A DNA stretch of 64,000 nucleotides from Eledone cirrhosa (lineage: Eukaryota): the NCBI GenBank assembly GCA_964016885.1, contig OZ024745.1:61194001-61258000 (forward strand). The letters are read 5' to 3'. A program made the position numbers and the translations under genes. Below are positions 1 to 3,978 of this stretch, piece after piece. The notes beneath the pieces are model-generated. The model saw nothing but the letters and a program-made list of their open reading frames with translations. It was not told the DNA's origin and did no database searches. Position 1 is the stretch's first letter; every line of letters starts with the position of its first letter.

Positions 1-1052
1 GAACCATTGATTCAGCTAGCGATAATCCGGTGTAGGGGACGGCTGCCTCTTCTACCAATGATACGTCCGGAACGAAGTTGTAGGCGACTTTGAAGGCTAG
101 AGCGTCCACAAGCGCCTCTTCTACATATCCCGGCTCTATGTTTCTTGAATCAATGAATCTCTTGTCCTTGTTCAGACATCCAATCATTCCATAAAACGTG
201 TGCAGGTAAGGGTTCGATCCCACAGAGAAGACACACTTATCTATCAGTCCCAAGGACTTCTGATAAGGGAAAATCCCTGTTTCCGAAGCTCCTGCATTTA
301 GGGACCTCAACATTCTCGTTATTTCGTTCGCCCCGGCTTCATTTATCATTAGGTAAAGCAGATCGGAGATGGTCAAATTAAGAATATTCATGAAGTGATT
401 CAGAACTTCGATTATGTGCATGCCTTCGTATCGGGCCAGTATAGTTCCTCTTCGCAGTAATGACAAGTCATGTGCATTATAGTTACCTGAAATGATCATT
501 TTTCACAATATGACTCAGGAAGCCGTTAAGAAGCATATCCTGATCATACCGATAAGGATGTGTCATCCTATAATTGTTAAAAGTTTTTATTATATTCTGT
601 TTATAGTCGCCGACTTCCAGACTTGTCCCCGCATTTACTACCTTATAAAGGGTGACGATATAAAGTAGTAGTCCGAGATGGTGATTTTGAGTGGACGTTG
701 TTGCGGTGGGTGTGGGGAAGCTGGAATTCTCGGTGATGGTGAAGAAGTCTGCAGGAGTGACTGTATTCTTTTGTCGAATAAAACTGTAATTCTGCAGATC
801 AGCATTAATATCGAATTTTAGATAAGACTGGCAATACCTGATCATGAAGTGTAAGATGTGTTTTGGTAGAATTTCTTGTGTGTTTGCCTTGGTTTGAATG
901 AAGTCGTGAGCCGCGTTAACATCTCCCCCAGAGAAGATGGTTACTTGCTGGGGCTGAAAGGATTCAGAATTAAAAACGTCAAAGTCCTTAGTCGTCTTGC
1001 TAAGGCTAAATTTCAGCTCCTCATGACCAGTGGAATTGGAAGAATTAGACAT
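1..1052 (-). pseudogene. Endogenous rhabdovirus-like (Mononegavirales) nucleoprotein N gene, frameshifted near 483, running off the window start
   Basis: The 189-aa ORF 1052-483 ends ..KNDHFR*. Manual translation of the shifted frame from 481 to 1 is open: YNAHDLSLLRRGTILARYEGMHIIEVLNHF..EAGANEITRML..GIFPYQKSLGLIDKCVFSVGSNPYLHTFYGMIGCLNKDKRFIDSRN. This is colinear with vesiculovirus N motifs RYGTIVSRFKDC, SYMPYLIDFGLSSKSPYSSVKNPAFH and RSTRARNAR. It is intronless and more GC/CpG-rich than the host introns. Confidence 0.85.
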
Positions 1053-2009
1053 AATGGATTGAAGGATTATAAAGACAACAGTAAAATACGATAAATCCGT
1101 GTTGTCTAATTATTAACATTAAATGTTAATGGTAAGTGTTGTAAGAATAGCTGTGGACGAAGCTATTATGGTAGTTTACCAGAGCTGGCAAGAAGATGAT
1201 GGGTAGGCGAGGAAATGTTGGCCTCCCAGATGTATTGCCGAATGTGCTAGGGAGCTAGGAAAAAATGGCCGGCCGCTTTGATAAGAAAAAAAGCAAGCTG
1301 AGCGATATCCAATTTTAGCCGCTTACTACAATGTATGAGGCTATTCCAACAAATTTACATTCCCCTTTTTTTAGCCGTTAAAAGAAATATAGATTTATGC
1401 CGCTTACTTGCTGTAGTTGCTGCTTACTTCAATGTATGAGGCTATTCCAACAAATTTACATTCCCCTTTTTTTAGCCGTTAAAAGAAATATAGATTTATT
1501 TATTGTTTTTTTTTTGCGATTTATTTGCTACTGGGGCATAGATTTCTTTATTTGCCCCTTCTTTGTTTGTTTTTTTGCGATTTATTAGCCTTTTGGGGTC
1601 ACACACACCCCCGTAGAAAGTGTGCGACCTTTCTGCCAGGGAGCACAGAGAGAGGGGGGGTGCTCCCTTCTTCTCTTACCTGTACAAGCCGATATAGAGA
1701 GATGGCCCACTTACACGGGCCATTATTGCTACTTTCACCCATCTTTCATGGAATTGGCTGGGACTGAGTGCCTTTTTCTCCACCTTGATCCTTCTTTCGA
1801 AGTGGTATCGGAAGAAGAGGACCATTTGTTGGCCGGCGACATATCCCCACAGTTTCCTCGTTGCAAACGCATCTGGGACATTTCTTTTCCAAGGGGTTTC
1901 CGTCCCGGAATCCGTGTCTGTAGAGCCTTTCCCGAACGGGCAGGGCCCCTCGGTATAATAGTAAGTATTAGTGGTTGTAATAAAAATGCAATCAAAATGT
2001 AATAAATAC

Positions 2010-2145
2010 CTCCACTGATTTCTTTCCTTATATTATCAACAGAAGTTGGTATGTCACCCAAAGTTCGCTTTGTATGTTCCCGAATAGCAGTGAATTTTGA
2101 TAAAACTGTTTCTAATTCCTTCTCCAGAGTAAGACAAATATCCAT
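2010..2145 (-). pseudogene. RMND5: Captured first coding exon of an RMND5-like gene (left arm, inverted copy)
   Basis: Reverse complement of 2319-2454 with a few substitutions (R/K, E/G) and the same GTATTT donor. Confidence 0.75.
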
Positions 2146-2318
2146 GTGTAGTCCAAAAAGATATAAATCTTTAAAAAAATTATAATAATTCTTTATTATT
2201 ATTTTCTTTTTCTGTAAATAATTATTTTTCTATATATCTCAAACCCTGCCAAACACCACATCTGTCTATCTGTAAATTTAAATGACTGTTCTTTCATACT
2301 TATCCTCTTCAACTACAC

Positions 2319-2454
2319 ATGGATATTTGTCTTACTCTGGAGAAGGAATTAGAAACAGTTTTATCAAAATTCACTGCTATTCGGGAACATACAAAGCGAA
2401 CTTTGGGTGACATACCAACTTCTGTTGATAATATAAGGAGAGAAATCAGTGAAG
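2319..2454 (+). pseudogene. RMND5: Captured first coding exon of an RMND5/GID2-like CTLH E3 ligase gene (right arm copy)
   Basis: MDICLTLEKELETVLSKFTAIREHTKRTLGDIPTSVDNIRREISE resembles the vertebrate RMND5A N-terminus (MDQCVTVERELEKVLHKF..). It ends at a phase-1 donor GAAG|GTATTT, after which the similarity stops. Confidence 0.75.
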
Positions 2455-3179
2455 GTATTTATTACATTTTGATTGCATTTTTATTACAACCACTAATACT
2501 TACTATTATACCGAGGGGCCCTGCCCGTTCGGGAAAGGCTCTACAGACACGGATTCCGGGACGGAAACCCCTTGGTAAAGAAATGTCCCAGATGCGTTTG
2601 CAACGAGGAAACTGTGGGGATATGTCGCCAGCCAACAAATGGTCCTCTTCTTCCAATACCACTTCGAAAGAAGGATCAAGGTGGAGAAAAAGGCACTCAG
2701 TCCCAGCCAATTCCATGAAAGATGTGTGAAAGTAGCAATAATGGCCCGTGTAAGTGGGCCATCTCTCTATATCGGCTTGTACAGGTAAGAGAAGAAGGGA
2801 GCACCCCCCTCTCTCTGTGCTCCCTGGCAGAAAGGTCGCACACTTTCTACGGGGGTGTGTGTGACCCCAAAAGGCTAATAAATCGCAAAAAAACAAACAA
2901 AAAAGGGGCAAATAAAGAAATCTATGCCCCAGTGGCAAATAAATCGCAAAAAAAAAACAATAAATAAATCTATATTTCTTTTAACGGCTAAAAAAAGGGG
3001 AATGTAAATTTGTTGGAATAGCCTCATACATTGAAGTAAGCAGCAACTACAGCAAGTAAGCGGCATTTAGGCCGCTAAAATTGGATATCGCTCCCGATTC
3101 GAACATTCCAAATGTTAAGCCACTCCACATAGCCATTAAAACGAATGGCGAATTCAAATAGGCTGCGTTTTCATACCTA

Positions 3180-3431
3180 ATCACGTCGGGTCACCAATTT
3201 AGCAGAGAGTTATATTTTGAGAGTTGTAATGTCGCCACGAGGAACCATCTTTGGTAGAAAGATATGATAGGAATATCGACAATGACTTTAGCTTGTTTTA
3301 CATAATTTATTAACAAAGGTTAAGAAGTGAATTAAGCTGGCATGCCAGAATAATGAAATAATTCAATTAAGATTACAAGAGAAAATACGGTCGTTTGGCC
3401 AGGTCCGTAGTAAAATTGTTGTGTCGTTACA
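3180..3431 (-). mobile_element. LTR (3431-3198) plus tRNA-Trp primer-binding site (3196-3180) of a Gypsy-like retrotransposon
   Basis: The minus strand begins TGTAACG, contains AATAAA and ends ..CTGCTAAA (degenerate CA end). One nt later comes TGGTGACCCGACGTGAT, the complement of the tRNA-Trp 3' end with one C lost. Confidence 0.7.
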
Positions 3432-3850
3432 TATTGTTCCTCCTCCTCATCATCATCATCATCATCCTTCTTCTTGAGAGGGTTGTGGCGGGCAGAGTCC
3501 TCAAATACTCCTTCGAGTAGGTTCTGTCAGAACCAACCATCTTGCTCGAGGTCTGCCCCTAGGTCTCTTGCCCATAAAATCTGTCCAGCGATTCTTTCCT
3601 GAGACATTGAGACATTCTAACCACATTTTTATTTTATTTATTTTTTATCGGAGGTGGAGTGGGGTAAAATAAAAGAAATTATGTTTAAAAAGATTGTTTG
3701 AATGTTTATATCTTCATGTCTTCAATATTACATACCACAAAACAGAATTGTATTTTTATCCTCTGAAACATAACTTTAAAACAGTGAATATTATGATGAA
3801 GAGATTGCAAGAATTAGTGTCTTTTCATGGTTCTGATATTTTCTTCCCAG

Positions 3851-3978
3851 AGTGCCGACAGATTCTTCTTCCTATGATCTTGACTCACACATCTGAACTG
3901 CTGAACAACAAACGAGAAATGCCAGAATGTGCCAATGTTCTCAGTGATATCTTGGACAATTTCTACTGCACAAGAAAT
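3851..3978 (+). CDS. DOCK1: DOCK exon ([25 protein letters not shown])
   Basis: CCCAG acceptor, GTAATT donor; resembles DOCK1 DCREILLPMM. Confidence 0.9.

Follow-up and report, generated by a model that had tools for sequence, protein, structure and literature searches.

The minus strand of nucleotides 1-1052 of the window (the whole stretch of 64,000 nucleotides analysed here, C5:61194001-61258000 of the 3.0 Gb Eledone cirrhosa genome) is a rhabdovirus nucleoprotein (N) gene, broken yet nearly complete. This copy is an inherited endogenous viral element, and it is directly joined at its 5' end to an LTR element. Most likely it entered the germline when the reverse transcriptase of a retrotransposon copied a viral N mRNA and switched onto the RNA of the LTR element, the product coming to lie in a DOCK intron and suffering one deletion. 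Six other places in the genome carry similar N/LTR fusions, which suggests that this virus group was captured repeatedly. The features of the locus, in window positions unless a C5 coordinate is given, are the following.

C5:61193802-10: gene-end-like tract of nine A, ~50 bases past the N stop and ~190 bases before the window, abutting a GAA-rich microsatellite.
502-2, minus strand: C-terminal frame of the N copy (C-terminal part 1..481), open, with the N motifs quoted in an earlier sequence-only reading of this DNA.
483..502, minus strand: break, with a frame shift; sister copies whose frame is open at this point have ~30 bases more.
1052-483, minus strand: N-terminal frame of the N copy, ATG-started, 189 amino acids to a stop met after the break.
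1053..1103, minus strand: 5' UTR of 51 bases, opening at a gene-start-like motif (AAC.CG) at 1103.
1104..1116, minus strand: apparent junction between host element and virus, where a few bases complete a short inverted repeat and, more weakly, a few may be viral leader.
1117..1301, minus strand: part of the interior of a non-coding LTR element that is ~2.4 kb long and present in many copies; the piece is 95% identical to its counterparts elsewhere and oriented like N.
1300..3093: high-copy foldback (long inverted-repeat) element of ~1.8 kb, its arms ~98% complementary around a 137-base spacer, lying inside the LTR element.
3093..3438, minus strand: more of the LTR element of 1117-1301, collinear with that piece: the 3' half of the LTR, a primer-binding-site-like motif and the 5' internal part.
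3853..3978, plus strand: exon of a host DOCK-family gene (TPR_DOCK, E 1e-5; alone below the curated cut-off).

The sequence-only reading had described two open frames, the second of them bearing rhabdovirus N motifs in order, and both frames were found as described. Against the Pfam family Rhabdo_ncap (PF00945), the comparison proposed in that reading, the window part of the C-terminal frame alone scores 53 bits (E 3.1e-14; curated cut-off 26), and the whole frame of 214 amino acids reaches 64 bits. The N-terminal frame alone has no significant family match in the profile search; it shares 82-85% amino-acid identity with the N-terminal half of the closest sister copies; in those sisters a single frame gives 55-81 bits against PF00945, starting at profile position 39 or 89. 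Solved rhabdovirus N chains match the C-terminal frame of the window at E 1.4e-8 to 6.7e-3 and make up 12 of the 16 listed matches, the other four standing at E 0.5 or worse. When the frame is aligned to the two best-scoring solved rhabdovirus N and to a VSV N, the three motifs fall in register. The central signature of rhabdovirus N is of the G(L/I)SxKSPYSS type, as seen in the solved chains, and in the window copy it is in register but substituted. Because the sister copies spanning it carry the same substitutions, and an Octopus bimaculoides protein has a similar form, the odd motif is a trait of the viral lineage: the signature is indeed altered, as had been noticed, but not through drift after insertion. 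A sister copy was modelled in place of the window copy for the structural comparison with VSV and rabies N, which had likewise been proposed. Its open stretch is predicted with a pLDDT of 92.5 from an alignment of 130 rhabdovirus N-related rows, and a model made from close copies only failed (pLDDT 33). The predicted fold resembles VSV, rabies and SVCV N with TM-scores of 0.71-0.76 (E 6e-13 to 3e-9), and the next fold class after N comes at E 4e-4.

The window copy represents one N transcription unit, since its ends match gene-start-like and gene-end-like signals. The C-terminal frame extends past the window edge by 142 bases and ends in a stop codon at C5:61193858-60, and the nine-A tract follows; this is the preceding DNA in which the earlier reading had advised looking for the N stop and a gene-end signal. 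The tract aligns with the gene-end signal of the sister copies, and the short 3' UTR with that of a sister. At the other end, the 5' UTR aligns with that of the copy at C2:336 Mb, and the gene-start-like motif matches the one that the C2:47.05 Mb and C219 copies carry behind their N gene end. The break is the sole frame disruption and is not a one-base slip; no other stops occur in the copy. Contigs of one sample reveal two alleles, neither of them in frame, that differ at the break by one small indel and 2 substitutions. The remaining coding gaps, of 21, 9 and 27 bases, are multiples of three in all comparisons covering them and are likely viral in origin.

The copy is set within a host gene. 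Plus-strand DOCK exons stand on both sides of it, C2 and TPR ones upstream and further TPR ones downstream, so the viral copy is intronic and antisense to the DOCK gene. The exon that the sequence-only reading had placed near 3851 is real and begins at ~3853. The genome has another DOCK gene of this type, at C6:12.16-12.18 Mb. Contigs from three runs of one sample, which is probably the assembly's own source, span the A-tract, the N gene and ~60 bases of the adjoining host repeat. Their depth over the N gene is that of a single copy (6.4-8.5, vs 5.9-9.8 in unique flank). The 3' microsatellite junction is spanned by no contig or read, this join being seen in the assembly only. Matching reads also occur in three of three other individuals under the same species label (reduced-representation runs of a second study): 7, 4 and 2 reads at >=95% identity, mostly from one shared site, a thin support that could include duplicates or cross-talk within one study. 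As the sister copies are only ~70% alike to the window copy, these reads are its own. The contig join to the host repeat and the reads from other individuals bear out the germline endogenisation that had been proposed.

The partner of the viral gene belongs to a large family, the repeat at 1117-1301 having 747 candidate places in the genome (best 40 scored). Four fetched copies are ~2.1-2.4 kb elements with no long coding frame, a primer-binding-like motif and a purine-rich stretch before a TGTAG start; terminal direct repeats are present in two of the four. We take the element to be Gypsy-type, from features typical of such elements and from Gypsy-like coding sequence beside two viral loci. 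Read along the minus strand, the window holds its parts in collinear order: LTR part (3438-3198), primer-binding-like site, internal sequence (3202-3093 and 1301-1117), and then the N gene. The LTR piece 5' of N lacks its first ~200 bases or so, and ~1.26 kb of the element is absent where the foldback element sits. The palindrome at 1300-3093 was considered as a viral or hairpin end and rejected, with 93 matches among the best 40 of 4390 candidates, mostly 93-99% identical; this foldback element is young and non-viral. No target-site duplication was found when one was looked for, and neither a 3' LTR nor a polypurine tract occurs within 3 kb beyond the A-tract, so that integrase-made ends are without support in the window copy.

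Genome searches brought up eight further N loci, plus a weak tenth match on C25 (E 1e-4); neither these copies nor the LTR fusion had been noticed in the sequence-only reading. LTR sequence adjoins six of the eight loci. The family seen in the window flanks the loci on C4, C5:74.85 Mb, C28 and C219, and a sister LTR sharing the purine-tract region flanks those at C2:55.9 Mb and C2:336 Mb; at the other two, no piece of the window's family lies within 10 kb. The family occurs in none of 31 background 3-kb tiles, which come from the 64-kb window and the flanks of the fetched loci and are not random places. It was discovered via the window copy, which is not an independent test of the association. 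At C4, C5:74.85 Mb and C2:55.9 Mb, LTR termini lie on both sides of N, N and the element run in opposite directions, and the joins contain short shared words; a polypurine-tract-like motif accompanies the LTR ends around the virus at sister loci. The window and C2:336 Mb copies are element-sense and begin at the gene start, and N is opposite to the element in five of the seven LTR-tied loci. One locus is repeated in place:

C28:117477140-117484968: tandem array of five units with a period of ~1.8 kb, each a partial N, antisense in the window's LTR element family.

More of the viral gene order is kept at C2:47.05 Mb and C219, where N is followed by a gene-end A-tract, a short intergenic spacer, an AAC-type gene start and then a P-like frame, for which Pfam gave no match. 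The C219 locus continues beyond this frame and ends near an LTR of the window's family, ~550 bases past the last viral-looking frame. N is linked to G or L at no fetched locus, and a genome search with PF00974, run without a positive control, gave no match. The most divergent N copy, at C2:46.93 Mb, is truncated and lies directly beside a putative Helitron coding region.

Compared with its four closest sisters, the window copy has pS of 0.76-0.95 and pN of 0.08-0.14; with nearly all sister stretches, pS is 0.73-0.95 (saturated) and pN 0.08-0.25, and dN/dS among three closer sisters is ~0.05-0.08. Synonymous saturation together with low pN implies that the divergence arose in a replicating virus, and hence that the captures were several and separate. 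The C4 and C5:74.85 Mb copies, at 0.32 on the synonymous comparison and with shared flanks, are probably one capture that was later duplicated, and those at C2:47.05 Mb and C219, which are 99% identical, are likely duplicates. The window copy itself appears young. Stops are made by ~3-4.7% of single-base changes, and zero stops in 393 codons corresponds to a neutral divergence of at most ~6-7%, in agreement with the 95% identity of the fused LTR piece to other copies. With an octopus rate that we assume to be ~0.0036 per site per million years, the insertion would be less than roughly 20 million years old. The missing stops are thus explained by youth. Where the earlier reading had offered recent insertion or selection, recent insertion suffices; selection need not be invoked, and the frame is broken in both alleles.

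The closest named relatives of the copy are octopod. A profile of ten rows from the genome's N copies, searched against 1.84 billion protein representatives, gave 244 matches, of which five are close, namely the four best and a short fragment; scores then fall to E 1e-16. Three of these five are named, Octopus bimaculoides A0A0L8FVJ3 and Argonauta hians GAB1603531.1 and GAB1610042.1 (E 4e-80, 7e-49 and 9e-29; next named virus 3e-16), the other two being assembly products. The Argonauta proteins lie on contigs of 27 Mb and 1.1 Mb, and all three named relatives, known from automatic annotations only, are 40-59% identical to the C4 copy. In a tree of 130 N rows, the octopod-associated rows form one clade with a support of 0.99 and a stem of 0.82 (one short Argonauta row was dropped), which fits the divergent rhabdovirus lineage that had been suspected. 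Among distant matches, the 20 of 150 looked up are insect, tick or arbovirus rhabdovirus N or insect genome copies. A word-based protein search with a sister copy returned no relative among 2792 candidates, and one with the ten-row alignment returned only the O. bimaculoides protein, itself a row of that alignment. With the N of Alpharhabdovirinae (VSV, SVCV, rabies, sigmaviruses, Menghai virus, Yongjia tick virus 2) the copies share PF00945, the predicted fold, the motif order and the gene-end/gene-start layout, but only 14-21% identity, and the central signature differs across the whole octopod-associated clade. Judged by these comparisons, the source virus falls in an octopod-associated clade that has no close named member. 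The lineage, which had been called unsampled, is so in the protein collections searched, but a rhabdovirus in cephalopod transcriptomes is reported in print (Rey-Campos et al., 2023, in its accessible part).

A route to the present structure can be proposed. Viral N mRNA would have served as template, the ends of the copy matching one transcription unit, and the copying would have been the work of a Gypsy-type reverse transcriptase that an autonomous element supplied. A switch of this enzyme from the N mRNA to the RNA of the LTR element would produce the 5' fusion. The window and C2:336 Mb copies, element-sense and with a 5' end at the gene start, are what such a template would be expected to give, and at the opposite-sense loci (C4, C5:74.85 Mb and C2:55.9 Mb) minus-strand synthesis may have jumped onto viral genomic RNA. 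The window copy is probably a young insertion, now neutral as protein. LINE-type retroposition would give some of the same marks, a LINE reverse transcriptase being primed on viral poly(A) at a simple repeat, with either a switch to LTR RNA or a landing in a resident LTR element. A single transcription unit, an A-tract beside the GAA-rich microsatellite without a 3' LTR, and a 5' LTR piece that is shortened as in an RNA-derived copy all agree with it. We nonetheless consider it unlikely, because there is no target-site duplication, the A-tract exceeds the templated gene-end signal by very little, and the sister loci, with virus between LTR ends and a polypurine-tract-like motif, point to LTR machinery.

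Capture by LTR machinery is also compatible with a later usefulness of the copies, in which the antisense intronic copy, or the whole set, might yield small RNAs against the cognate virus. Several viral strains are represented by at least nine N loci, most of them LTR-tied as in Aedes; this, the antisense position in a host gene and the reads in all three other individuals lend the idea some appeal. It remains doubtful, as there is no sign of selection after insertion, the frame is broken, the scattered loci include none established as a small-RNA cluster, and presence in four individuals fits drift. A domesticated host gene, its two frames explained by an intron or a programmed frameshift, would account for the lack of premature stops outside the break. 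This is very improbable: zero stops are expected below ~6% divergence, sequence is missing at the break with none added, and both alleles are out of frame and differ at that point. Still harder to credit is an assembly artefact, or contamination by an infecting virus or parasite. The best-covering runs do come from one sample, and the 3' junction is unspanned, but single-copy depth, two alleles and a contig join to host repeat oppose it, as do the DOCK exons that flank the copy within a 135 Mb contig and the matching reads in other individuals. An RNA virus, moreover, leaves no reads in DNA libraries unless it has been copied to DNA.

The element class and the mechanism are already known; what adds interest is the host group, a viral clade on a long stem, and one LTR family that was used repeatedly. 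For Aedes aegypti, the accessible text of a preprint proposes copy-choice capture of rhabdovirus RNA by LTR retrotransposons, N and G being favoured, and its rhabdovirus elements are, as here, mostly N-derived and LTR-retrotransposon-tied (bioRxiv 10.1101/127498). The present case differs in its octopod host, in the non-coding LTR partner at most loci and in the scattering of the loci. It also has five of seven LTR-tied copies opposite to the element, whereas polarity is mostly shared in that part of the Aedes paper (10.1101/127498). Mollusc rhabdoviruses are few (PMC11141596). Killamcar virus 1, a Uniorhavirus, comes from a mussel (PMC12282299), and two gastropod rhabdoviruses are in print (PMC11141596); in the accessible portions of these papers they are reported as viruses and not, as here, as genome copies. 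In the accessible portion of the 2024 rhabdovirus taxonomy update there is no entry for octopus, squid, cuttlefish or cephalopod (PMC12282299), and the main text of PMC12548735, so far as available, mentions neither "octopus" nor "cephalopod". No cephalopod or mollusc genome copies of rhabdoviruses came up in the open literature searched, most of it at the level of listings.

The copies are genomic evidence that a distinct rhabdovirus clade has repeatedly entered the octopod germline: one genome holds several strains, and two named octopod genomes hold relatives. The capture of RNA viruses by LTR elements, so far a matter of insects and mice, extends to a mollusc host with a specific partner family, and the N copies offer probes for the living virus. 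Two questions become testable: do cephalopods have a small-RNA immunity based on endogenous viral elements, and do the rhabdovirus reads of cephalopod transcriptomes stem from infection or from the transcription of genome copies? As a speculation, with the chances clearly against it, octopods may archive a still-circulating rhabdovirus clade, new at genus level, through many captures by one non-coding LTR family that feed small-RNA immunity, and part of the cephalopod transcriptome signal may come from such copies.

A second viral gene is represented elsewhere in the genome:

C3:130160000-130164830: long copy of a rhabdovirus L gene, interrupted by stops and frame shifts; a Gypsy-like pol frame of 901 aa lies ~600 bases away on the opposite strand.

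In the polymerase core this copy is 45-52% identical to 120 relatives among the matches listed, many of them Alpharhabdovirinae. In a tree made with 62 of the 120 and without an outgroup, its branch is 1.03 (support 0.72), and it does not group with killamcar virus 1. We infer that it derives from the same clade as the N copies. Smaller Mononegavirales L-like fragments occur at C23:16.22 Mb, C27:17.0 Mb and C3:37.5 Mb. The C23 fragment has no match to the named rhabdovirus L used and may belong to another family, and the one at C27:17.0 Mb is rearranged, with internal duplications. One of the smaller L pieces adjoins the window's LTR family.
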